In this document: positions 3,160-53,140 of the stretch, in pieces
Position numbering within the stretch: the first letter of the stretch is position 1
Layout: every line of letters begins with the position of its first letter
NCBI GenBank assembly: GCA_018669975.1
Contig: JABHSK010000001.1
Span: 88,394-152,393 of the forward strand
Origin: Candidatus Parcubacteria bacterium
GTDB taxonomy: Bacteria > Patescibacteriota > Patescibacteriia > UBA1558 > GWA2-36-10
Reading direction: 5' to 3'
Length of the DNA: 64,000 bases
The notes under the pieces: model-generated
The model's database searches: none
What the model was told of the DNA's origin: nothing
What the model saw: only the letters and a program-made list of their open reading frames with translations
Translations under genes and position numbers: made by a program

Positions 3160-3738
3160 TTATTCTTCATCTTCTTGATAAATTTCGGGCTTGAGGATGC
3201 CAATCCCAGAAAGATTGCGCAATTGCTGAGCATAGTCCAGACCATAACCGACTACGAAGTCATCACCAATTTCAAAGCCGACATAATCGACTTTAACTTC
3301 TTTTTCACGAGCAGCTGGTTTATCCAGTAAAGTACAGATAGACAATGAGCGCGGCTTACGATCAGACAAAAATTCCTTGAGGTAAGCCAGGGTTAATCCG
3401 GTGTCGACAATGTCTTCAACAATCAGGACGTTGCGACCAGCGATATCGATGTCAATATCTTTCTCAATCTTAACCACACCAGAACTACTAGTAGTGTCAC
3501 CATAGCTAGACACGGCCATAAAGTGAACTTCCAACGGAAGATGCATCGTTCTAATTAAGTCAGCACAAAATACAAAGGCTCCCTTGAGGATGCAAATAAC
3601 CACTAGTGGGTATTCCTCCCCCTCATCTCGATACTCTAGACTAATTTGCTGACCAATCGCTTGGACCCTCCGCTGAATAACAGAATCCGATATAAGACTA
3701 CTTTTGACACTACTAAGCAGATCCAACCCTTTTTTCAT
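3160..3738 (-). CDS. hpt: Hypoxanthine phosphoribosyltransferase
   Basis: ILKGAFVF, VSSYG, VLIVEDIVDTGLTL (PRPP loop), FVVGYGLDY; SD AGGAG upstream. Confidence 0.95.
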   Translation of the reverse strand: MKKGLDLLSSVKSSLISDSVIQRRVQAIGQQISLEYRDEGEEYPLVVICILKGAFVFCADLIRTMHLPLEVHFMAVSSYGDTTSSSGVVKIEKDIDIDIAGRNVLIVEDIVDTGLTLAYLKEFLSDRKPRSLSICTLLDKPAAREKEVKVDYVGFEIGDDFVVGYGLDYAQQLRNLSGIGILKPEIYQEDEE

Positions 3739-3760
3739 GATTTAACTCCTTTTGAAGATG

Positions 3761-3816
3761 ATTTAATGTACGACGTGAATTTGAGTTAATTTAGTATATT
3801 TACTTGTTTTTGTCAA
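3761..3816 (-). promoter_or_regulatory. Sigma70-type promoter plus boxA-like leader motif for hpt
   Basis: TTGACA (3816-3811), 17 nt, TAAATT (3793-3788); GTACATTAAAT at 3771-3761. Confidence 0.6.
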
Positions 3817-3825
3817 AATAAAAAC

Positions 3826-3843
3826 CCCAAACCGAAGTTTGGG
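3826..3843 (-). terminator. Intrinsic terminator after the DsrD-like gene
   Basis: CCCAAAC/GTTTGGG stem followed by a T-tract on the minus strand. Confidence 0.6.
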
Positions 3844-3853
3844 ATGTAAATAC

Positions 3854-4087
3854 TTAATCACCAGCAATGGGTTCAGTGTGTGGAATTTCTACATAACTAC
3901 TGCCGTAGTAAGTATAAATCAGGCGCTCAGAATCGATACACAAACGCAAAGCCTGCTTGCAAATCTTTTTGTCCACACCAAAGTGTCCTTGAATAGCCTT
4001 CTTTAGTTCGGTTGGTTTCCATTTCTTGCTGCCCTGGTCTCTGGTAACCATTTTGACCATTGCATCGGCGACTTGTTCTGCTGTCAT
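3854..4087 (-). CDS. DsrD-like small winged-helix protein (dissimilatory sulfite reductase D family)
   Basis: ~77 aa basic protein with KKWKPTELKK...CKQALRLCIDSERLIYTYYGSSYVEIP, which parallels the DsrD pattern (L)V/I-D/N-x-x-x-L-x-Y-W/T-x-x-G-S-S/T; start at MTAEQ behind GGAAGGTG. Confidence 0.6.
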   Translation of the reverse strand: MTAEQVADAMVKMVTRDQGSKKWKPTELKKAIQGHFGVDKKICKQALRLCIDSERLIYTYYGSSYVEIPHTEPIAGD

Positions 4088-4117
4088 AGCATCACCTTCC
4101 ATTCCGGGTTTGAGTAA

Positions 4118-4173
4118 ATATAATGTACCAGACGAATTTAAATAAACTTATTATATTTACCTATTTTTGTCAA
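4118..4173 (-). promoter_or_regulatory. Sigma70-type promoter plus boxA-like leader motif for the DsrD-like gene; close copy of the hpt promoter
   Basis: TTGACA (4173-4168), 17 nt, TAAGTT (4150-4145); GTACATTATAT at 4128-4118. Confidence 0.6.
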
Positions 4174-4182
4174 AATAAAAAA

Positions 4183-4202
4183 GGTAGCTCCTAGGAGCTA
4201 CC
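4183..4202 (-). terminator. Perfect 20-bp palindrome terminating the five-gene operon
   Basis: GGTAGCTCCTAGGAGCTACC followed on the minus strand by TTTTTTATTTT. Confidence 0.7.
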
Positions 4203-4209
4203 CTATTCT

Positions 4210-5037
4210 TTACTGAAGTAAAGAACCGTGTCGAAAAGCAAATCTAAAGCCATAATTTTGCAAATCAGAAATAAAAACTCTAACCTTTTCTTCTGAAGCA
4301 TCAACTAAGCCGTGTTTGGCCAACTGTTGGTTATCATCTAAGAAATTTACCTTGATGAAAACCCTGTCTACGTCAAACAATTTGGCTAATAGAGATACAT
4401 CATAATTCATACTCTCCATGACTACGAAATTAAGTGTAACTCGATTCCCGGGCCAATGATTAGCAACTTCAGCGATTTCCGCTAAAGTCATCATTGGTAC
4501 CTGCGGACTGAGGAAATTCCGTTCTTCGTCAGAAGTGGTATGACAAGAAAATTGCAACCTTAGTTGTATACCTTGCTCGTGCAATTGCCTGAGCCTGACA
4601 AACAGCTTCGGATTTCTAGAACCAGACGTCGACACAACAAAGTGCAGAAAGGGCCAACGAGCATACATTTGCTCAATAGCTTGGCAGGTGTTATCAACAT
4701 TGAGACTGACATCCCCCATTTGCTTGAAGGAAATCTTTACCTCGTCATAACCTGGACTATCCAACGCAAAGTTGGCATGAACCAGTTCTACCTGATTAAC
4801 TATCTCAGCTACTGACAGCTGACGCCAATCTTTAAACTTTCTAGTAAAACAATAGATGCAGCCGATGCCACAGCCAGAGCAAACAGACACGCCAATTTTA
4901 CGAATCAACTTGCCGTCATTTACATCCTGCAGTGTTTTATCAGCTGATAAAACTAAGCTGTCGTCGGCGACGGCTCGGCTTTTATAGCCAGTACCGTCGC
5001 CGATGTCTCTTGTTTGTTTAAGAATCAGCACACTCAT
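4210..5037 (-). CDS. Radical SAM enzyme, RlmN/Cfr-like fold but lacking the methyl-transfer cysteines
   Basis: CGIGCIYC (CxxxCxxC), QMGD, VVSTSG and FSCHTTSDEERNFLSP align with RlmN motifs; no C-terminal AACGQL. Confidence 0.75.
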   Translation of the reverse strand: MSVLILKQTRDIGDGTGYKSRAVADDSLVLSADKTLQDVNDGKLIRKIGVSVCSGCGIGCIYCFTRKFKDWRQLSVAEIVNQVELVHANFALDSPGYDEVKISFKQMGDVSLNVDNTCQAIEQMYARWPFLHFVVSTSGSRNPKLFVRLRQLHEQGIQLRLQFSCHTTSDEERNFLSPQVPMMTLAEIAEVANHWPGNRVTLNFVVMESMNYDVSLLAKLFDVDRVFIKVNFLDDNQQLAKHGLVDASEEKVRVFISDLQNYGFRFAFRHGSLLQ

Positions 5038-5051
5038 GATGCATCCTCCTT

Positions 5052-6086
5052 TTATCCCCGCTCAATAGCAGACAGGATGTCCAGAGCCAACATCAATGTG
5101 TCTTCATCAAAACAAATATCATCACCGACCATTATGTGTCCATAGCCCATCTGCAACAGACATTGAATATCCATAATGTCCGAACAGGTCGGACGCGGAC
5201 TATGGCGCAGTGAAGTCAGAATACGGGAAGCCACAATGGCATCACTGTCCATTTCGGCAATTTTACGCAGTGGCCGTAGTATCTTATCCGGACGACCAAA
5301 CTCCACATACATATCACCACGAGCAGCCATCAAGCCGACACCTGGGAACTTGCGCAGGCACTTACATGCCCAATCAAAACCCTGAGGTGATTCAATCTTG
5401 GCTTTAATAACAGCCTTAGGATCGAGTGCCAACATTTCCTGAATATCACTGTCCTGCTCCACATAGGAAAGCATGAAAGTGTGAATACCCAGTTTAACTG
5501 CTGCTTCAATATAGCGGCGATCCAGTTCGGTGAAATAACCTTCGACCTCAAAACTAGGATGTATGATATTGATAGATTCTCCACCGCCGACGACCTTTTT
5601 TGGGCCTTCAAGCATAATCAGAGTATCACCATCAATCACGTCAACGATGTGAGCTGAGTCATAACCATCCTGGAACCAACACTTGACTGGTCCCTTGGAA
5701 GTATCCAGCTTGATCTTATGGTCAATCTTGAGCGTTGCCCAAGGTGGCGTCCTGAGGATACCATGAGCCTTGGGACGACTAGAATCAAGCACCACAACTT
5801 CATCTCCAAGCTGATAAGCCTTGGGAGGCCTATCAGAACCATTGAAGAAAAAACCGTGTGAAACCCGAACCTGTCGACACTTGAGATCAATCCACATATC
5901 CTTGTCACCGATTTGAGACTTGATAAGTTTGAGCATAGCCGTCAGTGCTTCGACTGAAGGTAAATCATCCTCCTTAACTCCTTGCACCGGCATAACGGTG
6001 TTGAGCCGAACTCCCGAAATAATCGGAAGTTCGGCCACCCTGCCAATGAAGGGAGCATAGGGAGGAATTGTGGTAATCACTTTCAT
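5052..6086 (-). CDS. Pyruvate-kinase-like protein (barrel and lid, no C-terminal regulatory domain)
   Basis: KVITTIPP, VRLN, IDLK, LSYVE, IKAKIES, LMAARGDMYVE and SRILTSLRHSPRPTCSDIMD parallel PK motifs. Confidence 0.75.
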   Translation of the reverse strand: MKVITTIPPYAPFIGRVAELPIISGVRLNTVMPVQGVKEDDLPSVEALTAMLKLIKSQIGDKDMWIDLKCRQVRVSHGFFFNGSDRPPKAYQLGDEVVVLDSSRPKAHGILRTPPWATLKIDHKIKLDTSKGPVKCWFQDGYDSAHIVDVIDGDTLIMLEGPKKVVGGGESINIIHPSFEVEGYFTELDRRYIEAAVKLGIHTFMLSYVEQDSDIQEMLALDPKAVIKAKIESPQGFDWACKCLRKFPGVGLMAARGDMYVEFGRPDKILRPLRKIAEMDSDAIVASRILTSLRHSPRPTCSDIMDIQCLLQMGYGHIMVGDDICFDEDTLMLALDILSAIERG

Positions 6087-6114
6087 GATCTTTACTCTCC
6101 TCTATGCCTGAAGT

Positions 6115-7146
6115 TTAGGTGAGTTTCCTGCTTTTGAGACTGGTCTTGCCGCCGGACTTCTTACCAACAGCCACTCCATCTGTGCCTCCACCCGCAGATT
6201 TATCCTTGACCGAACGCAGAGACGTCTTGACCCGACTGACACGATCCGGCCGGTCACTATGACGCTTACCAGAACGCAACTCAAAGTCTTCGTACTCGCC
6301 GGCTTCGCCAGCAACGATACCAATGATCATCTCGATGATGTCACGCGGCTTATCCAGGGTAATAACGTTGTCAGTTCCATAGATATCAGTCCAGAAACGA
6401 CGACAACTGGATGTCTTCTTGAACAGCACATAGACCTCAAACTTGTCAGCCAGTCTGCGTAGCACTTCCTTGGAGTTCAGGTTAGCCTGAACATCGTCAC
6501 CAATGTGCTCACGCACATGTGCGGCTTCCAGATTAGTACGTGTCTTGTCGTCCAAAATCCAAACAAAAAGTGGCTTGACGGCATTGGGCATTTCGCAGTG
6601 ATGCGTGAAATAGTAAGCGGCCAAATCATAGCTCTCGGGGCTATCACCGCCACCACCCTCGGGATAGAGCTTCTTAAGCTCACCATCAAGGGGCTTACCC
6701 TTCTTGAAATCCCTGACCTGGAGTGGGAAACTATCATATGCAGAATCCCCAACCAGAGAGAAACATATTTCTCCCTGAGGAATATATCGTTTGGCTTCGT
6801 TGCCCAGCAGGGGCAACTTTTCCAAAATAATACCAACCTCAGTCCTGAAAGATCCGGTGTGATCACAGCAAACCACCAAAGGATGACTACTATTGGTTGA
6901 GACCGCCAGCTTCTTACGCTTGATCGGAGACGGCGTCTTACCGCGAGCTGAAGTGAAGTCATGACTGGCTCGGCTACTACGCGCTGACGAGCGGGCAGTA
7001 GAACGACCAGTGGAACGACCTGAGCTCCGCGTCGGTGTTGTAGACTTCTTATATGCCTTGCGAGCTGAGCGGAAATCTTCTCCGCCACTACGACTGACTC
7101 CTCCAGAAGACGAACTTCCAGAATCATCTTCCCAGCTGTATCCCAT
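6115..7146 (-). CDS. vWA-domain protein with S/R/G-rich disordered N-terminus and basic tail
   Basis: VVCCDHTGSF (MIDAS-like DxTGS), VGD, EGGGGDSPESYDLA, LFVWILDD; start MGYSWED behind GGGAG. Confidence 0.75.
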   Translation of the reverse strand: MGYSWEDDSGSSSSGGVSRSGGEDFRSARKAYKKSTTPTRSSGRSTGRSTARSSARSSRASHDFTSARGKTPSPIKRKKLAVSTNSSHPLVVCCDHTGSFRTEVGIILEKLPLLGNEAKRYIPQGEICFSLVGDSAYDSFPLQVRDFKKGKPLDGELKKLYPEGGGGDSPESYDLAAYYFTHHCEMPNAVKPLFVWILDDKTRTNLEAAHVREHIGDDVQANLNSKEVLRRLADKFEVYVLFKKTSSCRRFWTDIYGTDNVITLDKPRDIIEMIIGIVAGEAGEYEDFELRSGKRHSDRPDRVSRVKTSLRSVKDKSAGGGTDGVAVGKKSGGKTSLKSRKLT

Positions 7147-7230
7147 GTCTTTCTCCCATCGGTTTAACTTGTGCACAATGCACGTGATAGTGAATATAAG
7201 TCTCCGCTATTACCTAAATCTATTAGAAAT

Positions 7231-8019
7231 TTAAGAAACCTTCAGAGTCTCTCCACTGGATCGACCACCAAACAACTCCTGGCGCAAATCCGACAAAGGT
7301 CGAATCAATTCCTGGGCTGTACTGGGACGATCAAGTGGATTACGTTTGATCATCTGACCGATGAATCGCTGCAACTTATCAGGAACAGAGTCCGGAAAAG
7401 TCATACCAATATAGTTACCACCAAGTGCATGAATCATACTTACTCCTAGACCGTAAATATCGGTCTCAGGAATAGGTGGTTTGCCAGCAACCTGTTCTGG
7501 AGCAGCAAAAGCCGGGGTGTAACCCTCAACTTTGGTGCGACTCCGAGGTTTAAGTGTAGCCAAACCATAATCAACCAGAATTGCATTATGTTCATCCGGT
7601 TTGATCATGATATTAGCCGGTTTGACATCACCATGAATAACCCCATAGTAGTGAAGATAATGCAGGGCATTGAGTAGCCGCTGAATCATCCAACACACTT
7701 GTTCGGGATCAATACCTTTCGGATAATCTTCATCAACGATCTTTTGCAGATCTTTACCTTCGATAAAAGTCATAATCATCACAAAACTACCATCATCTAA
7801 CTCGATAAAATCTCGTAGAGTCGGCAATGAGTGATGATGAACATGCCAGAGAAGTTTAGCTTCTTTCTTCAGAAGCTCAACATCTGCAACACTAAGATCT
7901 ATATTCTGTTTAATGCAAGCCATCTCGCCTAGAATTCGATGCCGAGCTAGATAAGTTCTAGCAAAACCACCTTCACCAATCTGCTTAAGCACCTTATAGT
8001 TTCCTATAATAGTAGCCAT
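7231..8019 (-). CDS. Hanks-type Ser/Thr protein kinase (catalytic domain only)
   Basis: IGEGGFARTYLA, CIKQ, IHGDVKPANIM, DYGLA, FAAPEQ, TDIYGLG; start MATII behind AAGGAGGT. Confidence 0.92.
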   Translation of the reverse strand: MATIIGNYKVLKQIGEGGFARTYLARHRILGEMACIKQNIDLSVADVELLKKEAKLLWHVHHHSLPTLRDFIELDDGSFVMIMTFIEGKDLQKIVDEDYPKGIDPEQVCWMIQRLLNALHYLHYYGVIHGDVKPANIMIKPDEHNAILVDYGLATLKPRSRTKVEGYTPAFAAPEQVAGKPPIPETDIYGLGVSMIHALGGNYIGMTFPDSVPDKLQRFIGQMIKRNPLDRPSTAQELIRPLSDLRQELFGGRSSGETLKVS

Positions 8020-8029
8020 TGTCACCTCC

Positions 8030-8761
8030 TTACTCTCCAGAGAAGAGTCTTTCTGCCAACCAACTTGGAAGATCGTGTTTGTAAATAGCATCAGCTGTTT
8101 TCTGAATATCATAAAAAACCCGTCGTAGGTCAAAATAAAATTGACCCTCACGAATTTCTATGACTGCATAGCAGGCTCGACAATCTCCATCACGGGGTTG
8201 TCCAACACTACCAACATTAATCAAAAACTTCTGCTCTCCTGCCAACAACATATCCTCAGTAATGTCCTTAATTAAACCCTCCTCGCTTCCAAAAATAAAT
8301 GGAATGTGAGTGTGTCCAACAAAACAAAGCTTCGTCTGAAAATGTGGAATTTCTTCCCGAGCTCTATCAGCTTCATCGATATAATCCCAGTGATCAGAAA
8401 AAGATCCGTGCGCTAGGGTTATATCAAGCTCTGGCAAAACTAGGTTGTAGGGCAATCTGGCAATAGCTGCTTTTTCCGCAACATTCAATTGCTGATCAGT
8501 AAACTGCACACCAGTCAAAGCGCTACCATTAAAATATTTTGCAGCAAAATCAAGATCAAGAAGACCCTCTTCGTGATTACCACGAATCATATCCGTAGCC
8601 ATTACACAGGCTGTTTCCCAGCAGGCTCGCGGTTGCGGGCCATAGCCGATAATATCACCTAAAAAATAAACTGCATCAATGCGCAGTTCTTTTAGATCAT
8701 ACCAAACAGCCTTGAGAGCTTCCCAATTACTGTGGACGTCTGACAAAACAGCTATCCTCAC
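8030..8761 (-). CDS. Calcineurin-like metallophosphoesterase
   Basis: SDVHSN, LGDIIGYG, RGNHE, AHGS, GHTH, NVGSVGQPRDG; GTG start behind AAGGAGGT. Confidence 0.92.
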   Translation of the reverse strand: MRIAVLSDVHSNWEALKAVWYDLKELRIDAVYFLGDIIGYGPQPRACWETACVMATDMIRGNHEEGLLDLDFAAKYFNGSALTGVQFTDQQLNVAEKAAIARLPYNLVLPELDITLAHGSFSDHWDYIDEADRAREEIPHFQTKLCFVGHTHIPFIFGSEEGLIKDITEDMLLAGEQKFLINVGSVGQPRDGDCRACYAVIEIREGQFYFDLRRVFYDIQKTADAIYKHDLPSWLAERLFSGE

Positions 8762-8802
8762 GTCTTACCTCCTTTTTTAAGCTTTTTTGACTTGTTTTCG
8801 AC

Positions 8803-8991
8803 TTGTCAAAGTACATTAATATCCCCTAAATTAAATACTTAAGAGAATGTAGTTTTTTACCATAAAAGCAGGTTAGCGTCAAGGAAGGTAAGTAAAATGC
8901 ATATCTTTGACTTTTTTTACTTAAACATGCTATTTTTATGCTGGAATATATGAGTAAGTCCCCTCATGTTCAACCCGCACTTTGAAAGGAG
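8803..8991. promoter_or_regulatory. Divergent promoter region with a boxA-like motif in each direction
   Basis: Minus strand: TTGACG (8882-8877) and GTACTTTGACAA (8814-8803). Plus strand: TTGACT (8907-8912), TGCTATTTT, and GCACTTTGAAA (8977-8987) abutting SD AGGAG. Confidence 0.55.
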
Positions 8992-8997
8992 AAAGAT

Positions 8998-9639: not shown

Positions 9640-9646
9640 ACAACCG

Positions 9647-9674
9647 CACCCTACATTTTGTAGGGTGTTTTTTT
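9647..9674 (+). terminator. Intrinsic terminator after pyrE
   Basis: CACCCTACA-TTT-TGTAGGGTG followed by TTTTTTT. Confidence 0.8.
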
Positions 9675-9685
9675 ATAAAAATAAC

Positions 9686-9733: not shown

Positions 9734-9760
9734 ATAGGTAGACAAATTAACCACAACAAT

Positions 9761-10360: not shown

Positions 10361-10364
10361 AATT

Positions 10365-10511: not shown

Positions 10512-10528
10512 GTATGCAATAGTGATAG

Positions 10529-16081: not shown

Positions 16082-16143
16082 TTGACAAAATATATAAAGT
16101 ATGCTATAATACTATATCAACATCAAAGACCGAACCTTTAAAA
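16082..16143 (+). promoter_or_regulatory. Consensus sigma70 promoter plus boxA-like leader motif
   Basis: TTGACA 16082-16087, 17 nt, TATAAT 16105-16110 with extended TG; GAACCTTTAAAA 16132-16143. Confidence 0.7.
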
Positions 16144-25308: not shown

Positions 25309-25391
25309 TTTTCAAAGGTCTAGACATTAAGAGACAATTTATGCCATCTTAATGAATACAATATTATATCATATATTTGAAAAAATGTCAA
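25309..25391 (-). promoter_or_regulatory. Consensus promoter plus boxA-like motif
   Basis: TTGACA (25391-25386), 17 nt, TATAAT (25368-25363); GACCTTTGAAAA (25320-25309). Confidence 0.65.
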
Positions 25392-30028: not shown

Positions 30029-31057
30029 TTAGGGGTTATTACCCACATTAAGATCCTGCATGAATCCTTCGCCACCGGCGGTCATATCGAGCTTTCCAGC
30101 CTCGATGATGGTTGTGGCGGTCTCCACATCACAATAGTTGATGTAGATAGTGCCTGCCGGCTTAGGTTGCCAGAAGGTCAATTCTTCCGAATCAGGATGG
30201 ATACGCTGGTTGACACGAGCTCCAGCAGCTACTTCGATTTGGGGTGCAGATTCAAGACTACGGGTCGAGGCTCCGATCAACGGACCTCTACTACTAAACC
30301 TCTTGACTCCGAGATTACCCCTACGATAGCGGCCACCGTAACTGTGTCCACCACCGGCAAAACCGACATCACCTAAGAGATCTCGGTAGACAGACGGCGG
30401 CGGAGCCGGTCGTTCTTCCCGACTGAGGTAGAAAGCAATGCCAATGGCAAAGACTCGCTCAGCTCCGATGACCTGAGCAGCCACACCACGCATCATTTCC
30501 TCAGTAAAGTAGAACTGACGGACTACACCGTCCTTAGCTCGGAAGCCATCCAACCAGAAACTCCCACGGGGAGTAACATTGCTGGCCAGATAATTCTGGG
30601 AATCCCACTTGAAGCCGCAGTCTGCGCAAAAACGCTCGTGACCGAGCTTGGTGCCGTGTACCGGACAATTGTCATGGTACTGCTCCAAGGAGTGGTCATC
30701 TACCTTGCGACCTGTAATGGCGTTGATACCCTGAACTGAAACCAGAGCTGCCACATGGTGAGTGTGTCCGGCATTGCCGTTGAAATCCAACCAGAGTCCG
30801 TGTTCCGACATAACCGGGACAAAGAAACTGGCAGCATCGGCATTGCCACGCATCCAGGAATCTGGACATGCCAGATACTCGTCAACTGCAAAGGCAGGAC
30901 GTCGGTTGTAGGGCGGTAGGCCTTGAGCTACCTCATTGCCTGAGCCATCATCCCGACGCTTGAGCGCCTTAGGCATGTTGAGAGTACAGGTAAGTCCGTT
31001 GATGGACATTTCGGTGCTACCACCACGTCCGCTGGCAAAAGGGTCGTTGGTACTCAT
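30029..31057 (-). CDS. Hypothetical protein, GC-rich, with a CPVH..CADC insert
   Basis: SD GAGGAG; LPP...W...FFVP...LWLDF, QNYL..P..WLDGF...VRQF, AAGARVNQRIHPD motifs. Confidence 0.75.
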   Translation of the reverse strand: MSTNDPFASGRGGSTEMSINGLTCTLNMPKALKRRDDGSGNEVAQGLPPYNRRPAFAVDEYLACPDSWMRGNADAASFFVPVMSEHGLWLDFNGNAGHTHHVAALVSVQGINAITGRKVDDHSLEQYHDNCPVHGTKLGHERFCADCGFKWDSQNYLASNVTPRGSFWLDGFRAKDGVVRQFYFTEEMMRGVAAQVIGAERVFAIGIAFYLSREERPAPPPSVYRDLLGDVGFAGGGHSYGGRYRRGNLGVKRFSSRGPLIGASTRSLESAPQIEVAAGARVNQRIHPDSEELTFWQPKPAGTIYINYCDVETATTIIEAGKLDMTAGGEGFMQDLNVGNNP

Positions 31058-31092
31058 TATCGATCTCCTCGTTTAGTAAACCAAAGATTGGT

Positions 31093-31121
31093 GCGGCGGG
31101 ACGGTCAGACCGTCCCGCCGC
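31093..31121. repeat. Perfect 14-bp inverted repeat between co-oriented genes
   Basis: GCGGCGGGACGGTC-A-GACCGTCCCGCCGC with no T-tract. Confidence 0.75.
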
Positions 31122-31152
31122 GAAATCACCCGATATTTACTAGACACTAGGT

Positions 31153-32031
31153 CTAGAACCTACGGTGTTTACCTCCAAAGGGATTATTGAGACCATTACC
31201 ATTCTGTCCGGTCCGCATAAGCTTAAGCGAAGGCAAGCCTCCGCCCTGCTTAAGTGCATCGAACATGACAGAAGCCTGCGAATAACGCTGACGAATCTTG
31301 CTCTCGGCATCATCGCCGAAAACCATGTCCATCACCGTATGGGCATCGTTGAGCTGGTTGACGACCACCTCTCGGGTCTCCTTGACGGTCAAATGGACCA
31401 GAACACGTACATCGAAAGGCACTCCGGCCCAACTACGATTAGTCTGATCACAGGTACCGTCGGGACGAAGCATGCGTCCCGGATAGAGCGGATTTTCATC
31501 CGCCGTCATATCCGGCCGTTCACCGATGCGGAAGGTCTGACGGGGACGTTCGTCCACCACCATGGTCTCGCGCTCGGGGAACTTGTCCCTGAGCTCATCA
31601 ACCAAAGTCGTGGAAGGCTCCACGTTGACCGTACCGTTATCGTTGAAAACGATACAGCGACCACCATTTGACAGCGTACTGAGACGCTTGCCAACAGGAT
31701 TGTCCGGGTCACGCGGATCGTAGTGCTCGAGGAGCTCTGCGACTGCCATACCCTGGGCACGCCTTTCGGTAATCACTGTCGGACGCTTCTTGTCCTGCTC
31801 GCGCTCGCGAAAAATTTTGGCCACTCGCTTGGCCACAAACTTTGGCAGACCACACTCCTGCAAATCCTCCCAGGAACATTCCTGCAAGGCCTCCAGGGTG
31901 GTGCCGCCTGCCAGGCGGAGTTTTTGGAAGAAGTCCGAGGTGGAAATACCCGTTCCGCCACCGGAATGAGCACTTTCGTTGTTAGCTGCGATGGCCTCAC
32001 GGGCCTGTTCGATCTTCTGTTCGTAAGACAT
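31153..32031 (-). CDS. Hypothetical protein, GC-rich, with an N-terminal SAM/HhH-like helical motif
   Basis: SD AAGGAG before MSYEQ; LEALQECSWEDLQECGLPKFVAKRVAKIF. Confidence 0.75.
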   Translation of the reverse strand: MSYEQKIEQAREAIAANNESAHSGGGTGISTSDFFQKLRLAGGTTLEALQECSWEDLQECGLPKFVAKRVAKIFREREQDKKRPTVITERRAQGMAVAELLEHYDPRDPDNPVGKRLSTLSNGGRCIVFNDNGTVNVEPSTTLVDELRDKFPERETMVVDERPRQTFRIGERPDMTADENPLYPGRMLRPDGTCDQTNRSWAGVPFDVRVLVHLTVKETREVVVNQLNDAHTVMDMVFGDDAESKIRQRYSQASVMFDALKQGGGLPSLKLMRTGQNGNGLNNPFGGKHRRF

Positions 32032-32271
32032 GTGTCTCTCCTTTGCTCTCAAGCTCTCTCTCGCTCTTAGCAAATCTTTTTCACCTGATAAACCTCAGGT
32101 AAAGCCGACGAGATATCAATGTATCCTCCCTCCTTTCCTGTCGAAAATTGACCCCAAGGGTCAGAAAAAGACCCTCGGAATTTCCGGTAAAACTAGATTC
32201 TACCGGCCGAGGAGTTAAACCCCTATTTTAATACAAATAAGAAACTAACTCCTGACCAATAAAACCTATAT

Positions 32272-32449
32272 TTATTAAGGTACAAACGTTAGACATTATA
32301 ATAAAATCAGTGCTTTGTCAATTCTTATTTATTATAATAAAAAATGTTTAAAGTGGCTATATTGACAAAAACATCAAATATTATTAAAGTACTCTATTGT
32401 TATATTCAGCAAAGAAAAATCCTGAAAAACTCGTACCTTTAAAAAGGAG
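32272..32449. promoter_or_regulatory. Divergent promoters, each followed by a boxA-like motif
   Basis: Minus strand: TTGACA (32321-32316) and GTACCTTAATAA (32283-32272). Plus strand: TTGACA (32362-32367), 17 nt, TAAAGT, and GTACCTTTAAAA (32433-32444) abutting AAGGAG. Confidence 0.6.
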
Positions 32450-32461: not shown

Positions 32462-32995
32462 ATGAAAAACCTAAAAGAGCTTGGCTTAAAACTACTCGAG
32501 CCTTTTCGCATCTTTTTTGTCGACTTGGTCTGGAGAGAAATGACACACCCTTCATGGGGTAATCGCCTGACGGCCTATAGCGCACTTGCCATCTTTGGTT
32601 TTGTCTTTGGCTTTGTGCTTATTGTACTGTCTGAAGATCTACCGACCTACGACGAACTGGCAGCCAAAGACCCCAATGCGCCATTTACCGAGTGGCAAGC
32701 TGTGGTCGAGGGTGTCCGATATCCTTCGTGGGATGATCTTACTTTAGGATTAATCTTGGACCGACTCAAGCAAAAAGCTCGAAGATATGAAGAATGGATG
32801 GTGGTATACAACACCTCAGTGGGCCGAGGCGCTCACCGACGAGTAGAACGACTATCTCTAGAAAAACTTCTGGAAACTGCCCAAAGCTACGAGCAAGCTG
32901 AATTCGTCTATAAACACCACAACTACCATCGCCATCTCAAGGGTCAAGCCTTGGGTAAAATGGCCAACCTGACCCAAAATACAGGGAGAAAGTAA
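32462..32995 (+). CDS. Membrane-anchored helical-repeat protein, paralog 1
   Basis: TM helix, PTYDELAAKD, repeats of A-x-x-Y/F-E-E/Q-W/A-x-x-V-Y. Confidence 0.7.
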   Translation: MKNLKELGLKLLEPFRIFFVDLVWREMTHPSWGNRLTAYSALAIFGFVFGFVLIVLSEDLPTYDELAAKDPNAPFTEWQAVVEGVRYPSWDDLTLGLILDRLKQKARRYEEWMVVYNTSVGRGAHRRVERLSLEKLLETAQSYEQAEFVYKHHNYHRHLKGQALGKMANLTQNTGRK

Positions 32996-33577
32996 TGCTC
33001 ACAATCAAACACCTTCTCGGATGGCCCCTACGATATCTCAATAGCGAATGGAAGAACGCCCCTTTCTCAGTCCGCCTGATGATGATCGTAGTAGGAATAT
33101 TCTTTTCGCTACTGATCTTCCTGAGTACTGCATCCTGGATCGAGCAAACGCCCTCATTTGAAACCTTGGCCGCCAAGGATGATGACACCTCGTTCCAAGA
33201 ATGGAGAGATATAGAGGCGCAGGCCAAATATTCAAAGTGGAATGAAGCCAGCTTCACGCTAATCATCACCAATATGCAGCAAAAGGCTGAAAGCTACGAT
33301 GACTGTCTTCAAAACCGTCAAGGGTAATAATCATTATAGACACATCGAAAGAGCTGCTCTGACTCAATCGCTAAACAAGGCTGAGGCCTATGAGCAAGCC
33401 AAGTGGCTCTACAAAAATGACGACTACAACAGCGATCTCAAAAGCGCGGCCTTAGAAAAAATGGCTGCTCTAGCCAGTACCTACGATGAGTGGGAATATG
33501 TCTTCGAGAAAACCTATCCAGCTCATCCACTGCATGCTCGTGCTTTACGTAAAATGCAAGAACTAACCTCATCCTAA
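32995..33577 (+). pseudogene. Helical-repeat protein, paralog 2, split by a frameshift near 33298-33305
   Basis: ORFs 32995-33327 and 33299-33577 each match consecutive parts of paralog 1. Confidence 0.7.
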
Positions 33578-33591
33578 CAAGGAGTCAGAAC

Positions 33592-34656
33592 ATGCCAAAA
33601 CGTTGGGTAGTACCTATTATATTAACTTCTGTATTGGCAAGCATAGTCATAACTATTCTTTTGAACAAATCACCCTCTTTTGAGGAGCTGGTTGCCCAGA
33701 ACCTAACTTTTGGCGAATGGGTCGAGGCCTATGACGATGCCAAGTATGGCTCTGACGAGCGCAAGCTGATCATCCAGAAGATGGCTGAAGGAGCCACGGA
33801 ATTTGCTCAATGGGATATTGTCCGAGAAAAAGCTGGCTATGACAGCGATTTTGATGATCTGGCCGTGCAAAACATGGCCCTCACAGCCCAGACCGCCAAA
33901 CAATGGCATCGACTAATGACTGTCACCTACGACCATGAGCTACGCCAAACTGCTGTGGCGAAAATCCAAGAGCTGTGCGCTAGCTTTGAAGATTGGCAAG
34001 CTGTCTACAAAATATCTTCTTGGTCCAGTGGCAGCAGCGAATATATGGCTGAGATGTCCATAACTAAGATGCTGGAAACTGCCCAGACCTTTGAGCAGGC
34101 CCAGTTTACTTTTAGTAGACTAAGCAACAGAAGCGAACAATACCAAGCTGCCGTAACAACTATGGCTAAGCTGGCTGGCAACTACCAGCAATGGAATATT
34201 GTCTACGAGGCTGCTCACTGGCAAGACAGAGACACCAGAAATCAAGCCTTGGCCGCTATGCGTAATCGTGCCGACAATTTTGAGCAGTGGAAGATTATTT
34301 ACCGCCACTCTGAGCGTGATAGCCCGAAACGGGTGGAAGCCGTAGAACGTATGGCTGATTATGCTGGCGTTTTTCTGGAGTGGGCTGATGTCTACACTGC
34401 CATACCCGATGAGCACGAGCTCAAGCAAATTGCCTTTGTACTCATGGATCAATCTCCACTACCGTTTGATATGTGGTATGATGTCTGGACTACTCACGGT
34501 TCCAAAAAGGTCAAATCACTAGCTTTTAGCAAGCTGAGCAAGCAAGCTCACACCTTTGACCAGTGGCACAAGATCTGGCAGAATTCACCCTCGGGTAGTG
34601 ATACCGAATCCATGGCCCTAGCCAAAATGCAAGAGTTTAGCACTGCTTCTCCTTAA
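33592..34656 (+). CDS. Membrane-anchored helical-repeat protein, paralog 3 (about ten ~30-aa repeats)
   Basis: SD AAGGAG; PSFEELVAQ; recurring M-A-x-x-A-x-x-F-x-Q/E-W motif. Confidence 0.8.
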   Translation: MPKRWVVPIILTSVLASIVITILLNKSPSFEELVAQNLTFGEWVEAYDDAKYGSDERKLIIQKMAEGATEFAQWDIVREKAGYDSDFDDLAVQNMALTAQTAKQWHRLMTVTYDHELRQTAVAKIQELCASFEDWQAVYKISSWSSGSSEYMAEMSITKMLETAQTFEQAQFTFSRLSNRSEQYQAAVTTMAKLAGNYQQWNIVYEAAHWQDRDTRNQALAAMRNRADNFEQWKIIYRHSERDSPKRVEAVERMADYAGVFLEWADVYTAIPDEHELKQIAFVLMDQSPLPFDMWYDVWTTHGSKKVKSLAFSKLSKQAHTFDQWHKIWQNSPSGSDTESMALAKMQEFSTASP

Positions 34657-34665
34657 CAAAAATGT

Positions 34666-34689
34666 ACCCCGTACTTAAATGTGCGGGGT
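34666..34689 (+). terminator. Hairpin, copy 1
   Basis: ACCCCGTAC-TTAAAT-GTGCGGGGT followed by a T-tract. Confidence 0.7.
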
Positions 34690-34850
34690 TTTTATTTTAT
34701 CTCTTTACAAATAGACCAAATAATGGCAAGATACGGTCAGCGTTCATTGTCCTTTATAGCTCCGACAGAATCCTTAGAACGCGGGAATGGCTGTCTTTGC
34801 ACTTTCACCGATGGGATTTAATGGCCCGTCGAGAAATGAGAGGTCCTCCA

Positions 34851-35726
34851 ATGGCACGAGATGTAAAACCCCGAGATCTCCAAGAACCAATGTCTAGAAA
34901 GGCCATCGTCATAATGATTGGCTGGCTAGCACTATTCTGCCTGCTAGGTTTCCTAACCCTCAAGAGAATATCTAACCCTGAAATGATTTTCGTTTTTTTA
35001 CTGGAAATGTTTATTGTGTCTTACTGCTTCTACTATATTGGCTCGGAGTGGTTTCCTAGAAACTTCAAGACTCGATATCTCTGGTACTGGCTGGAAAGAC
35101 CACAAAATGAAGACAGAAGGCTTCGTTGCCAGACTGGTTTTAATCCATCACGAGCTCCTGTAGCTTTTCGACTCAAAATCTCCGGCTGGTCCGGTAATAA
35201 TCAGATCTTTGTTGATGGAAAGCCTAGTGATGACTGGCGAGTGGAAGTCTTTAAAGACTTGGACTTTTTTAGCTATCACGACTTGATTATCTATGACAAG
35301 GAAGGTAGACCACTATACATTGAAGGTCATGGTTTCCATAGTGTCGAATACCTACTCTGGGTCGTCGAGAGTGCACCTGATCTTTCCAAACATTGGAACT
35401 ATGAATATACCATCGCCAAAGAACACCGTGATATGATCAATGCGCTACTAGTCCTGGAGGAAGCCTCTGCTCCTGATGGAACCATGGGTAATAAATGGCA
35501 AGCCAAATTTATCCGAGATTTCGTCGGCGCAGAACTTGACCAAGTAATCGGTAGGTGGCTCAATGGTGAGTCCACGGATGATCTCCTTCCTGGAACTGAT
35601 CTGAAGCTGTCGTGCAAACGATATGATCTAGAAAATGTTCTTCGAAATTGCACTGGCAGAATGAGACTGCTACCGGCCGAACCTGTGTTCAGGTGTAGTG
35701 AGAAGAAAATGATAACTACATCCTGA
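34851..35726 (+). CDS. Hypothetical membrane protein (two N-terminal TM helices)
   Basis: Start MARDVKP behind GAGAGGT; the longer ORF would overlap the upstream terminator. Confidence 0.65.
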   Translation: MARDVKPRDLQEPMSRKAIVIMIGWLALFCLLGFLTLKRISNPEMIFVFLLEMFIVSYCFYYIGSEWFPRNFKTRYLWYWLERPQNEDRRLRCQTGFNPSRAPVAFRLKISGWSGNNQIFVDGKPSDDWRVEVFKDLDFFSYHDLIIYDKEGRPLYIEGHGFHSVEYLLWVVESAPDLSKHWNYEYTIAKEHRDMINALLVLEEASAPDGTMGNKWQAKFIRDFVGAELDQVIGRWLNGESTDDLLPGTDLKLSCKRYDLENVLRNCTGRMRLLPAEPVFRCSEKKMITTS

Positions 35727-50488: not shown

Positions 50489-50497
50489 ATTTTTATT

Positions 50498-50752
50498 TTA
50501 TTTATCAGCTTCTGGCTTCCAAACTTTTTTCTCGTATGGATGTGAGTCAATAATATAAACTGGGCCAATCGGTTTAGTTTTTTCATCTTGATTGTGATTA
50601 TCACAATAAGTCCAAAGTGGTTTTGGAATTTTAAACTTTCTAATTACACAATATGCATCTCCCTCTTTTTCTATTTCTGGGTAGCCCTTTTTTCCATCAT
50701 TTTTACTATTAAACTTACAGGTTCCGCAATGGCCTGGTCCTCCATTTGGCAT
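50498..50752 (-). CDS. Small Cys/His-rich hypothetical protein
   Basis: MPNGGPGHCGTCKFN...YCVIR...TYCDNH. Confidence 0.65.
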   Translation of the reverse strand: MPNGGPGHCGTCKFNSKNDGKKGYPEIEKEGDAYCVIRKFKIPKPLWTYCDNHNQDEKTKPIGPVYIIDSHPYEKKVWKPEADK

Positions 50753-50767
50753 AGTTTTATTTATTAA

Positions 50768-51181
50768 TTATTTTTTATTTAATTTTCTAGCATACTCTAT
50801 AGTTTCTTCTTTCTTTGCTATCTCAGTATATAATAGATTTGGATCTGGTTTACTATTTATTCTCCATAAATCTAATCTATCTGCATCCCAACATGTTTGA
50901 ATAGTAATATCATTACTTTGAGCATTTGATTCACTATGATTAGCACAGGCAAAAATAAGTTGTTCAAATTGTTTATCTGTCACATCCAATAAATTTTTAT
51001 TGTACAAAAGTTTTAAATACTGAGCAGATCGTTTACCATGTTGGCCATCAAATCCGTCATCTCTCCTTCTTATATCATGAAAATATGCAAATAAACTCAA
51101 AACTTTTTTATCGGCATTATTGTAATCAGCTAAATAGTGGCCGATTTTCTCTACATTTTCAAAATGATCTTCTTGATGCAT
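50768..51181 (-). CDS. HD-domain phosphohydrolase
   Basis: FAYFHD, HG..SA, CANH, CWDADRLDL. Confidence 0.8.
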   Translation of the reverse strand: MHQEDHFENVEKIGHYLADYNNADKKVLSLFAYFHDIRRRDDGFDGQHGKRSAQYLKLLYNKNLLDVTDKQFEQLIFACANHSESNAQSNDITIQTCWDADRLDLWRINSKPDPNLLYTEIAKKEETIEYARKLNKK

Positions 51182-51183
51182 AT

Positions 51184-52017
51184 TTAATTTATAACTTCAC
51201 AATAGTAGAAATATGGAGGCCCATAAGTATTTTTTATGCCTAATATTCTTACTTTTTTTACACCTGTACATGCATCATATTCCATATGACCCTTATATCC
51301 GCTTTGATAGGTGCCCTCTACATATCTTTCTCTGCAATTAAATTTTGTAGTGGGAGGAAAATAACAATTCATATCTTTAACATGTCCACTTTGTCCATCT
51401 ATGTATACTTGTAATTGTGCATAAGAATTATCAACTTCTCTGGGGGCATATTCAGTTATTGCATAAACATAATATTCTTGAGTCTTGTCTCTATATACTT
51501 GCCAATAAATTATGCTAATAATTAATACTACTATCAATATTCCAAAAATTAGCTTTTTCATAATATTTTTATTACTTGCTTCTTGTCTTTGTTTATTGTG
51601 CGTATTATTAATATTTGTTTTCATAGCTATGTTTTCTTTATTATCAAAAAATTCCTTACATGTTTCAATAACTTCTGACGGCACTACAGTTGCTTTAACC
51701 AAGTATTTGACGGCACCTAGTTTATTAGCTCTATTTATATCTTCCTTCTGCGAATGATTAGTAAGAAAAATAATTGGAATATCTTTTGTTTTTTTATCTT
51801 TTTTTAAAATTTCTGTAGCTGCAAGACCACTCATTACTGGCATTGTTATACTCATTAATATAAGATTGGGCTTTTCTTTTAAAACCTGCTCTACAAGCTC
51901 TTTGGCTTCAGCAGGTGGATTTAAATAATATTTATAATTAAATCCTGCATTTCTAAACTTAATAGCATACATATTAGCTAGCATCTCCTCATCTTCAAAA
52001 TGTACAATTTTCTTCAT
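51184..52017 (-). CDS. Receiver-domain protein (phospho-acceptor Asp apparently Ser) with TM helix and extracytoplasmic domain
   Basis: HFEDE, LILMSITMPVMSG, FLTN, YLVK; hydrophobic LIFGILIVVLIISIIYW. Confidence 0.7.
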   Translation of the reverse strand: MKKIVHFEDEEMLANMYAIKFRNAGFNYKYYLNPPAEAKELVEQVLKEKPNLILMSITMPVMSGLAATEILKKDKKTKDIPIIFLTNHSQKEDINRANKLGAVKYLVKATVVPSEVIETCKEFFDNKENIAMKTNINNTHNKQRQEASNKNIMKKLIFGILIVVLIISIIYWQVYRDKTQEYYVYAITEYAPREVDNSYAQLQVYIDGQSGHVKDMNCYFPPTTKFNCRERYVEGTYQSGYKGHMEYDACTGVKKVRILGIKNTYGPPYFYYCEVIN

Positions 52018-52078
52018 ATTTTTTGTTAGTTATCTATTAATACATCGTATACCAAATAGCTGACATTTACAAGAATCA

Positions 52079-52474
52079 CTATTGTCTGCCGGATTGACCG
52101 CCAAATTGTATATAAGCGCCTTCTTCGGTGTCTAGCTTATTTTCAATTGAATGTTGAACACTAGAAATATCAGATATACGATGGTTATCACTATCAATTT
52201 CTCGAGTGTCTTTTGCATTACTCTTGTTCCAAATTTTTTCATTGTTTCTGTCATTTTTTCTCCTTTCTTTAGGCTGGATAAGTCCAGCTTTTATTAAACT
52301 TTTTGCTACTTGGCCAAAAATACTTTCTAAATACCAAGCTAAGTCGGTATCTACTAAATATTGCCAAGCATCGTGCTCTTCATCTTTGTTTGCTTCGACT
52401 CCTTCGCAGAATCCCTGAGCTATTACTGTAGCTAAGTAGGGTGTCATTTTTGTATTACTATAATATCTTTTCAT
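52079..52474 (-). CDS. Hypothetical protein (phage-like)
   Basis: AWQYLVDTDLAWYL..FG..A..LI.AGLI motif. Confidence 0.6.
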   Translation of the reverse strand: MKRYYSNTKMTPYLATVIAQGFCEGVEANKDEEHDAWQYLVDTDLAWYLESIFGQVAKSLIKAGLIQPKERRKNDRNNEKIWNKSNAKDTREIDSDNHRISDISSVQHSIENKLDTEEGAYIQFGGQSGRQ

Positions 52475-52498
52475 ATTTTTATTGATTAATAATTAAAT

Positions 52499-52846
52499 TT
52501 AGTCATTGTTTTCACAGAGAATTGTATTAATACCTGGGTCATTTAACCTCTCCTTACCCTTAGGAAGCTTCTCATGTGCCTTATAAACACAACTAGCTTC
52601 CTTATCATATATTCTGACATCCCAACCTTTGTCCATATAGTGCCACTGCGCCCTAGTACGGTCATTTGGGTTTAAAGCCAAAAAAAGCCTATCAGCAAGC
52701 GCTATACAATGCTCAATAGAGCTAAAGTCGCTAGCTAGTATCTTATAGCGATAGTCATCAAAAATATCAGCATAGTGATAGGCGTCCATCAAGTCTATAA
52801 TAGCGATTGTATAAGGTAGTTTAGATTGTTTTTCTTTTGTTTTCAT
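52499..52846 (-). CDS. Hypothetical protein
   Basis: 115-aa ORF directly downstream of the structured RNA. Confidence 0.6.
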   Translation of the reverse strand: MKTKEKQSKLPYTIAIIDLMDAYHYADIFDDYRYKILASDFSSIEHCIALADRLFLALNPNDRTRAQWHYMDKGWDVRIYDKEASCVYKAHEKLPKGKERLNDPGINTILCENND

Positions 52847-52865
52847 ATTTTTATTGGTTAATTGT

Positions 52866-53097
52866 TAGCTTGCAGCTATTGTTTTTGGCTTCATGCCTCG
52901 ACCTTTATAAAAACAAAAAACGGCTGAGAGATTTGATCAACGTATAAAACGTCAATGAAATCTCCCAACCGTCATAGGCTAGTCGAAATATACCATCTGG
53001 CTCACCGCAGATTTCCCAGTTTGCCTCCCATCTCAAGGATGGAGATATATTCGGCGCGAATTAGCTGCACGCGCTACAGACTCTTCTATCAAAGTAC
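52866..53097 (-). ncRNA. Candidate structured ncRNA or riboswitch-like leader with an internal intrinsic terminator
   Basis: Promoter TTGACA-16-TATAAT (53131-53104), boxA-like GTACTTTGATA, hairpin, three-way junction, 14-bp stem plus T-tract. Confidence 0.55.
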
Positions 53098-53140
53098 ATA
53101 GTAATTATAGCAAAAATAGGGGTTTTGTCAAGGTTTTTGC

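Follow-up and report, generated by a model that had tools for sequence, protein, structure and literature searches.

The question raised by the stretch of DNA considered here, 64,000 nucleotides (nt) of a Candidatus Parcubacteria genome (assembly GCA_018669975.1, contig JABHSK010000001.1, positions 88,394 to 152,393, that is, G000:C8:88394-152393, where G000 is the genome studied; 'the window' in what follows), is why a scattered set of GC-richer genes carries Shine-Dalgarno (SD) sites, recognizable promoters and terminators next to core genes that are nearly devoid of SD sites, and what the short motif present in several of their leaders may be. A preliminary description of the window had proposed that such genes form one regulon marked by an element resembling boxA, the NusB/NusE antitermination site, and, more speculatively, that their mRNAs are tuned for another organism's ribosomes. 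The explanation put forward here, which we hold at slightly less than an even chance, is that they are GC-rich accessory cassettes, each with sigma-70 promoter, SD site and terminator, and that their leader motif would be the lineage's own variant of boxA.

Two gene classes in one genome

The G000 assembly (1.07 Mb, 10 contigs, GC 0.36, 96% completeness) was described by its non-overlapping longest open reading frames (ORFs) of at least 70 amino acids (aa), which gave the 1084 genes (91% coding, with an intergenic share of 8.9%) on which all class statistics are based. Starts were taken as the first ATG, GTG or TTG, so that the SD frequencies are lower bounds; the gene at 16253-16966 of the window, for example, was initially mis-called by the longest-ORF rule. 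The GC heterogeneity noticed in the window is real, the distribution of gene GC being bimodal, with its principal maximum at 0.34-0.36 and a shoulder in the range 0.42-0.52. Class 2 was defined as the genes with GC >=0.42 (167 of 1071) and class 1, the core, as the 822 genes with GC <0.39, with an intermediate bin at 0.39-0.42 that comprises 82 genes in the homology comparison and 84 in the SD count.

When an SD 4-mer was sought at -20 to -4 of the start (1076 genes), it was found in 4-7% of the genes below GC 0.39 (6%, 4%, 4% and 7% in successive bins of 65, 151, 324 and 284 genes), in 20% of the 84 genes of the intermediate bin, and in 57-67% of those at GC >=0.42 (62%, 57%, 60% and 67% in bins of 52, 58, 40 and 18 genes), a split between the classes with which duplex energies agree. 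Within the window, the first start is preceded by an SD 4-mer in 9/16 genes of GC >=0.42 versus 1/50 core genes. Thus, the second gene class with shared expression signals that had been described for the window holds there as well as genome-wide.

The other signals follow the same division. Class-2 genes occur as islets of 1-9 genes each, spread over all large contigs, and their median upstream gap is 136 nt versus 28 nt for class 1. By taking into account only upstream regions of at least 60 nt (131 class-2 versus 340 class-1), a TTGAC-N16-18-TAnnnT promoter was found in 53/131 and 73/340 cases, respectively, with a richer consensus in class 2 (TaTTGACAAaA...TGnTATAaT), and in the first 40 kb of the window the sole two 12-of-12 promoter matches (16082-16110 and 25391-25363) precede class-2 genes. 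A hairpin with T-run follows the stop codon in 92/167 class-2 versus 204/822 class-1 genes; two scans of the window returned 33 and 27 terminator-like sites, against 13.3+/-3.7 and 14.2+/-4.6, respectively, in shuffled sequence. A k-mer test of class-2 versus class-1 upstreams brought out AAGGAGG (28 versus 3), TATTGACA (32 versus 11), GAACCTT (14 versus 2, p 7e-7) and TCAAAAC (16 versus 2). The class-2 upstream regions are themselves AT-rich (GC 0.33) and their promoter is of the same type as that of the genome's own rRNA leader. Class-2 genes, about one gene in six, are therefore self-contained cassettes with a near-consensus sigma-70 promoter, an SD site and an intrinsic terminator. As a practical consequence of two start-site grammars in one genome, gene callers trained on one class mis-start genes of the other, as seen at 16253.

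The mosaic of the two classes is not an assembly artefact because contigs of other marine sequencing runs carry identical pieces of a class-2 islet and bridge its boundary: in a comparison that covered positions 1-11900 of the window, pieces of the islet 3160-9639 were found on low-depth contigs of four such runs with zero differing letters, and the class-1/class-2 boundary at 3115/3160 is spanned by one X4 contig.

The two classes also differ in their distribution among genomes. In G005, a member of another genus of the same family (16S identity 90% over 822 nt), of which 800 of the 842 kb of the main contig were compared, a homologue was found for 12/167 class-2 proteins, 36/82 of the intermediate bin and 513/822 of class 1. 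The most GC-rich class-2 gene examined, that at 16253-16966, is an orphan, with two proteins among 5.8 billion, namely itself and one relative at 64% identity, and a metagenome scan intended to footprint its homologues returned the identical copy only. The five-gene operon 4210-8761, on the other hand, recurs in a Candidatus Peribacteria metagenome-assembled genome, apparently in the same order as judged from ORF lengths, with 61% and 45% identity for the two protein pairs compared, and there too it is an islet of GC 0.50-0.53 within flanks of 0.37-0.43. From the scarce homologues, the orphan gene and the operon shared with Peribacteria, it is therefore proposed that class 2 may be an exchangeable, fast-turnover accessory gene pool, the GC-richness of which may stem from repeated recent import or from active maintenance.

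The leader motif and its possible relation to boxA

From the enriched k-mers a 14-column matrix was refined, which reads nG-(A/T/C)-(A/C/T)-C-(C/T)-T-T-n-A-A-A-(A/C), with the greatest information at G1 and C4 (frequencies: G1 0.81, C4 0.98, T6 0.90, T7 0.81), a preference for A at positions 2-3 and for C or T at position 5, and an A-rich 3' half. Since refinement flatters such a matrix, it was cross-validated by contig halves. Held-out class-2 upstreams reached a score >=10 in 17% (of 84) and 21% (of 47) of cases, class-1 upstreams in 1% (of 205) and 1% (of 135), the reverse strand in 5-6% and dinucleotide shuffles in 3-4%, so that the motif is indeed commoner before class-2 genes than before core genes or in shuffled sequence. 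Consistent figures were given by the pattern G[ACT][ACT]C[CT]TTNA[ACT]A, found in 27/131 class-2 and 5/340 class-1 upstreams, in 6/131 on the reverse strand and in 0.9% of shuffles. Genome-wide, 6/6 occurrences of GAACCTTAAAA and 15/18 of G[ACT]ACCTT[ACT]AAA are intergenic.

In the 25 sites with both promoter and SD, the distance from the -10 hexamer to the start of the motif has a median of 19 nt (interquartile range 13-36) and that from its end to the SD a median of 9 nt (interquartile range 4-23); in eight long leaders it lies closer to the SD in five and closer to the promoter in three. Since only between about a fifth and a third of class-2 leaders contain the motif, the term 'one regulon' is too strong. 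An SD was found after start refinement, which is biased towards SDs, in 37/43 motif-bearing class-2 genes with an upstream region of at least 60 nt, and the presence of the motif is unrelated to N-terminal hydrophobicity, to length and to GC. The nine motif strings of the preliminary description are all present at their coordinates and strands (table 1); when scored with a matrix trained without the window's contig, three are strong (16132, 32433 and 32283) and two or three plausible, while those at 3771, 53097 and 4128 do not rise above background.

Apart from a few small groups, the class-2 upstreams have no detectable homology to each other, so that repeated copying of a single ancestral leader does not account for the signals they share. 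Paralogue families account for 23/167 class-2 versus 211/822 class-1 proteins. With upstreams that are not mutual copies and proteins that are mostly singletons, the comparisons indicate that the motif is maintained in its own right. As a separate observation, the class-2 leaders of C2:73754-74218 and C7:106518-106817 are 89% identical over 84 nt and contain a hairpin with the anti-SD-like CCTCCTTTGC as its 3' arm. A family of intergenic repeats that are nearly the same in sequence (identity up to 100% over 52 nt) precedes 17 class-1 genes at about 94-113 kb of contig C7 and about 2-8 kb of contig C8, and is unrelated to the class-2 signals.

Several functions of the motif were considered and rejected. 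A general role as an anti-SD mimic that sequesters the SD is not supported by the predicted pairing in 24 leaders, which between the core of the motif and the SD was 0.16, versus 0.10 with a shuffled motif, and for the SD as such 0.65 versus 0.62. Pairing with 16S rRNA was discarded with zero 7- or 8-mer complements in the 822 nt available of the own 16S or in five relatives' full 16S. That the motif might be an extracytoplasmic function-type -35 box with a partner -10 box was discarded by aligning 58 intergenic motif sites, in which information above 0.3 bits was present only within the motif, with zero further conserved flanking positions.

The genome of G005 is split similarly, with 70/770 genes in class 2, an SD in 47% versus 5% and TTGACAA enriched. 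With the G000-trained matrix at a threshold of >=9, sites were found in 10/53 class-2 versus 7/281 class-1 upstreams (2% on the reverse strand, 7% in shuffles), and the relaxed pattern given above matched 6/53 versus 0/281; a partial count over 400 kb had shown zero enrichment of the motif, an outcome that the full 800 kb reversed. In G000 the strict GAACCTT behind TTGAC occurs 24 times versus 6 for the reversed-pattern control. Two orthologous G000/G005 pairs have motif-like elements at similar positions of both leaders. As far as these alignments and counts indicate, the motif family is common to both genera and one variant of it is expanded in G000.

The resemblance to boxA noted in the preliminary description turned out to be more than superficial. 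The published consensus, GYTCTTTAANA, is that of gamma-proteobacteria, and C4 and T6 are critical in the E. coli boxA, where their mutation abolishes function, as described in the parts of Baniulyte et al. 2017 (PMC5725501) drawn on here, which also place the suhB boxA 6 nt from the SD. This gamma-proteobacterial consensus is included in the motif family, and among its 24 exact occurrences in G000 seven are intergenic, three or four of which lie directly before an SD. An alignment of the 23S leaders of nine relatives revealed two conserved elements, namely C(C/T)TT-n-AAAA directly 3' of a hairpin and, approximately 100 nt beyond it, AGAACTTTGACAAGTGAATA. In 11 family genomes the second element reads G-N-A-C-T-T-T-G-A-C-A-A, with invariant G, TT and three A's, A3 in 10/11 and C4 in 9/11; its A at position 3, in many cases also at position 2, is the feature by which the class-2 motif too departs from the consensus of E. 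coli. A sequence-only model of the second element (R1), built with no G000 sequence and run unfiltered on both strands of the window, ranked the kinase-operon leader at 8803-8815 first (E 0.063) and included four of the nine claimed sites in its top 20 (8803-8815, 25309-25321, 53089-53098 and 8977-8987). The protein partners are encoded as well, with a NusB domain detected at 8.2e-36 (5.6e-35 in Pfam) and S10 (NusE) at 2.8e-35.

A number of results weigh against this assignment. The motif differs from the published consensus at positions 2-3, and in 85 other genomes of the order its commonest G000 form, GAACCTT, does not exceed background. The E-values of R1 are weak for so short a model, which moreover shares TTGACAA with -35 boxes and produced partial -35 matches (3810-3818, 4167-4175, 16033-16040), and the model of the first 23S-leader element (R2) recovered 0/9 claimed sites, with only A/T-rich chance matches in the window. 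The 450 nt of the genome's own 16S leader contain zero matrix matches of >=6 bits, and the family's 16S-leader element, which lies partly within the leader-trailer helix, has G or T where the motif has its near-invariant C4. No motif was found upstream of nusB (behind rpmF) or rpsJ (behind tuf). Sites number dozens per genome, where 0-7 boxA sites are reported for gamma-proteobacterial genomes (PMC5725501), and the majority of class-2 leaders are without one. Of the two factors that the preliminary description had singled out, nusB is present, whereas the Rho RNA-binding domain (Rho_RNA_bind) was not found in the 96%-complete G000 under conditions in which the control detects it in nine known genomes; the classical purpose of antitermination would thus be missing, and protection from Rho is an unlikely purpose because of this negative result. 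The NusB-S10-NusG network is, however, described as being kept also where Rho is dispensable or absent (PMC13753749). With both sides taken into account, the boxA reading falls marginally short of an even balance.

The NusB of G000 is a 287-aa NusB-Nudix fusion encoded outside the window (G000:C4:147762-148625; L032:1483-2346). The fusion is full-length in one frame in 47/61 genomes of the order, NusB alone is found in 12/61, all of one family, and 2/61 gave no match. Its stretch IRELSEETGL looks like an intact Nudix catalytic core when set against the Nudix motif. In the literature consulted, the supplements of the cited papers being outside its scope, no description was found of the gene-class split, of boxA-tagged accessory leaders or of a NusB-Nudix fusion.

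The rRNA genes of the lineage offer some further observations. The own 23S is absent from the assembly, where only an 86-nt large-subunit-like piece was found, and the 3' end of the own 16S is also unassembled. This piece (G000:C1:181304-181389; L002), which matches 23S positions 2128-2213 and is isolated within a region rich in class-2 genes, possibly mimics rRNA in the leader of an mRNA. The family's 16S genes (relatives' loci L003-L016) share a conserved leader-trailer helix, and in several relatives the 16S is followed by its own terminator, with separate tRNA and 23S units, so that the rRNA genes are apparently unlinked.

Translation of the cassettes and competing explanations

Whether the cell can read the strong SDs of class 2 depends on the 3' end of its 16S rRNA, which had been named as a point to verify. 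The canonical anti-SD GGATCACCTCCTTTCT is present in 16/16 relatives, from the family or the order, for which the 3' end of 16S is available, the own 3' end being unassembled as mentioned above. Because the relatives keep it, the cell's own ribosomes can pair with AAGGAGG, and those of a host are not needed. In this respect the family differs from a Parcubacteria subgroup that is reported, in the part of PMC9297842 drawn on here, to be without anti-SD. Among the AT-rich core genes is rpsU, coding for bS21 (G000:C3:78553-78801; L076:1482-1743), which is preceded by a conserved promoter and 5' hairpin and by an extended SD, AAGGGAGGTGAT, that ends 3 nt before its GTG start. GGAGGTGA lies beside rpsU in 12/31 loci, in one of which it overlaps the first matched codons; in the family, one more locus has RGGAGG and 5/5 further loci viewed have a GAGGTG-type site, so that an SD is found at rpsU in at least 17 of 30 relatives' loci.

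In Bacteroidia the anti-SD is concealed by bS21, bS18 and bS6, and translation of rpsU falls to ribosomes poor in bS21 (Jha et al. 2021, PMC7797042; PMC9976891); the occluding residues include Tyr54 of bS21 and others, also in bS18 and bS6, according to the sections of PMC7797042 used here. Since an SD-led rpsU combined with an SD-less core is the signature of this circuit, the analogy suggests that availability of the anti-SD may be regulated in the present family too, and that class-2 translation could depend on such regulation. The best PDB matches to the sequence of the own bS21 were chains of the Firmicutes type, whereas the alignment to the Flavobacterium johnsoniae chain was not usable. 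In contrast to Bacteroidia, where SDs are confined to a few ribosomal genes, about 100 class-2 genes have SDs here.

With these elements, the explanation centred on a boxA variant can be formulated as follows. According to the prediction, the motif recruits NusB(-Nudix)/S10 to the polymerase transcribing the cassettes, and Nus binding would alter elongation, the read-through of hairpins formed by GC-rich RNA, the handling of the 5' end or translation. The SD sites would be read by the cell's own ribosomes, and access to their anti-SD may be controlled by bS21, as happens in Bacteroidia, a possibility raised by the extended SD that rpsU has throughout the family; the cassettes would represent a horizontally exchanged pool of accessory genes. 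A more elaborate version, to which we attach a rather small probability, invokes a second, rRNA-like expression channel for accessory genes, in which the boxA tag, close to the start of the mRNA, would recruit the clade-specific NusB-Nudix and bS21-poor ribosomes would carry out translation; the Nudix domain would act on, or read, the 5' end of the nascent mRNA, and the strong SDs would need ribosomes with a free anti-SD, so that the accessory pool would be gated apart from the SD-less core. That a 5'-proximal boxA may bring the Nudix domain near the nascent 5' end is speculation.

The position of the motif lends itself to other interpretations. Its short distance from the SD, which it adjoins in several leaders, the SD present in 37/43 of the motif-bearing genes and its A-rich 3' half would suit a part of an extended ribosome-binding region, be it an enhancer or a standby site, that loads 30S subunits on GC-rich structured mRNAs independently of Nus factors; enhancers directly 5' of strong SDs are known from phage late genes. 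We regard this as unlikely, if deserving attention, for the most informative positions are G1 and C4 rather than the A/U-rich part, 16S complements are missing from the own 822 nt and the five full relatives, 96 nt separate the motif at 16132 from the SD of the gene 16253-16966, three of the eight long leaders have the motif nearer the promoter, and the same element is found in the untranslated 23S leaders. An equally modest probability is given to the motif being the site of another lineage-specific regulator (a DNA repressor, an RNA-binding protein or a small RNA) that co-regulates or silences accessory genes: a location at approximately +6 to +29 of the predicted transcript is typical of roadblock operators, the motif is strand-specific and limited to a subset of cassettes, and the strict GAACCTT is amplified in G000 only (24 versus 6 in the control, background in the 85 genomes). 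What is missing for such an operator is a second half-site or a fixed-distance partner box in the 58 aligned sites; the spacing to the -10 hexamer is variable, and the relaxed motif recurs in another genus and in rRNA leaders, which points to a conserved factor.

The origin of the genes has also been considered as the whole explanation, the signals having been imported passively with genes from SD-using, GC-richer donors and the motif being a remnant of donor leaders. Class-2 genes are GC-rich at all codon positions and rarely common to the sister genus, one operon is common to a distant CPR (candidate phyla radiation) lineage, and the fall of SD frequency through the intermediate bin (20% at GC 0.39-0.42) is as amelioration predicts. 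Nevertheless, passive import is judged improbable, more so than the two preceding alternatives, by taking into account that the upstreams are AT-rich (GC 0.33) with a promoter of the type of the own rRNA leader, that one motif stands before unrelated proteins without detectable leader homology and matches the rRNA leaders of the recipient family, that for the gene of highest GC among those examined, an orphan, 5.8 billion proteins include no donor, and that the operon at 45-61% identity is GC-rich in both hosts. The proposal that class-2 mRNAs are made for another organism's ribosomes draws only on the contrast of SD-led GC-rich genes versus an SD-less core. It is at odds with the canonical anti-SD in 16/16 relatives and with the extended SD that the core gene rpsU has in G000 as well as at no fewer than 17 of the 30 loci of relatives, and class 2 includes ordinary enzymes and a protein with an N-terminus that is signal-peptide-like by eye; furthermore, we know of no route of mRNA export. 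With a probability close to nil, the foreign-ribosome idea can be dropped.

Features of the window and comparison with known systems

The features of the window are collected in table 1. An Rfam scan of the window returned zero families at the gathering score, and no tRNA was found in a tRNA search of it.

Table 1. Class-2 genes, their signals and the nine claimed motif sites in the window (bits: score with the matrix trained without the window's contig).
Feature	Position	Strand	Details
Class-2 phosphoribosyltransferase gene (hpt-like)	3160..3738	-	Pfam Pribosyltran 1.6e-27; GC 0.43; AAGGAG-type SD before ATG; terminator 3154-3134
Claimed motif GTACATTAAAT	3761..3771	-	weak, 4.9 bits
Promoter-like TTGACA-17-TAAATT for hpt	3788..3816	-	
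Claimed motif GTACATTATAT	4118..4128	-	unsupported, -5.6 bits
Class-2 five-gene operon	4210..8761	-	GC 0.42-0.51; terminator 4204-4181
Kinase-operon leader motif GTACTTTGACAA	8803..8814	-	9.1 bits; top window match of R1, E 0.063
Leader motif GCACTTTGAAA, adjoins SD of pyrE-like gene	8977..8987	+	9.1 bits; R1 rank 17/20
pyrE-like gene	8998-9639	+	promoter-like site 8907-8936; terminator 9646-9668
Consensus promoter TTGACA-17-TATAAT, TG extension	16082..16110	+	12 of 12
Leader motif GAACCTTTAAAA	16132..16143	+	16.1 bits, top of the nine; 21 nt 3' of -10 hexamer
Class-2 orphan gene, 237 aa	16253..16966	+	SD AAGGAG 16241-16246; terminator 17009-17030 and T-run
Class-2 gene, 514 aa	23720..25264	-	GC 0.48; zero Pfam families; terminator 23705-23666
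Leader motif GACCTTTGAAAA	25309..25320	-	6.7 bits; R1 rank 5
Consensus promoter, TG extension	25363..25391	-	12 of 12
Two class-2 genes	30029..32073	-	GC 0.54-0.55; zero Pfam families
Leader motif GTACCTTAATAA	32272..32283	-	11.1 bits; about 10 nt 3' of a TATAAT
Promoter-like TTGACA-17-TAAAGT	32362..32390	+	
Leader motif GTACCTTTAAAA, adjoins SD of 32462-32995	32433..32444	+	12.6 bits
Class-2 gene cluster	32462..35726	+	GC 0.44-0.48; zero Pfam families; terminators 34666-34689, 35751-35773
Structured leader (about 260 nt) before gene 52499-52846	52847..53110	-	fold -82.3 kcal/mol, z -5.1 versus shuffles
Claimed motif of the structured leader	53087..53097	-	weak, 3.4 bits; R1 rank 16

The genes of the operon 4210-8761 correspond by Pfam to a metallophosphoesterase, a Ser/Thr kinase, an unknown protein, a pyruvate-kinase-barrel-like protein and a radical SAM protein. 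At the 5' side of its Peribacteria counterpart, approximately 290 nt from the first start of that operon, GTTCTTTGACAATTCG (L074:30-45) matches the G000 leader site 8814-8799 in 14/16 positions. The label 'dsrD-like', which had been attached to the ORF 3854-4102, could not be retained, as this ORF matched zero Pfam families. The stretch 16190-16972, considered also as a large non-coding RNA, is instead a single plus-strand gene, 16253-16966, with its own SD: the codon periodicity (GC 0.56/0.36/0.77 at the three codon positions), the SD, the start codon and the N-terminus, signal-peptide-like by eye, rule the RNA out. A gene for a recombinase of the phage integrase family (37572-38516, minus strand) lies 1.8 kb from the class-2 cluster 32462-35726. 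With respect to the candidate non-coding RNA with a motif at 53097-53087, the leader is predicted to fold far better than shuffled sequence, while the motif is weak; the leader ends in a strong hairpin like that of an intrinsic terminator, has no Rfam family at E<=0.3 except chance miRNA matches, and could be an attenuator or a riboswitch.

Should the motif prove to function as a boxA, the reach of Nus factors, for which rRNA and a few mRNAs are nearly the only targets known to date, would extend in genome-reduced bacteria to the control of a large number of genes for accessory proteins. Such a finding, if true, would also provide a handle on the expression of newly acquired, compositionally foreign genes beside an SD-less core. 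The boxA hypothesis has the further merit of linking the SD-less core with its SD-led rpsU, the NusB-Nudix fusion and the persistently GC-rich accessory genes.

Among known systems, the closest terms of comparison are the mRNA boxA elements of gamma-proteobacteria, of which that of suhB is an example (PMC5725501, as far as the sections used here describe them). In both cases a short sense-strand leader element lies near the SD, with G1, C4, T6, T7, A9 and A11 in common. Here, however, sites number dozens per genome rather than 0-7, they mark accessory genes rather than genes for Nus factors or translation, positions 2-3 favour A or T, nusB and rpsJ are without an upstream site and, with no Rho found, Rho-linked repression cannot be the outcome. 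With the rrn boxA and its complex of NusB, NusE/S10, NusA and NusG (PMC4807359, PMC13753749, in the parts drawn on), the present system shares the resemblance of the motif to the relatives' 23S-leader element and the presence of NusB and S10; it differs from it in that the element is placed on protein-coding cassettes and NusB is fused to a Nudix domain in 47/61 genomes.

Similarly, the SD-blind Bacteroidia (PMC7797042; McNutt et al. 2023, PMC9976891) resemble this family in keeping the anti-SD (in the relatives), in a core that is nearly SD-less and in an SD-led rpsU, but more than 100 further genes have strong SDs here, where F. johnsoniae has essentially one according to the portion of PMC7797042 considered. 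Finally, deviant GC at all codon positions, patchy distribution and an operon shared across distant lineages are also properties of horizontally acquired islets, from which the class-2 islets are set apart by being very small (1-9 genes) and scattered, by their uniform native-type promoters and common leader motif, and by a GC-richness that persists at 45-61% protein identity.

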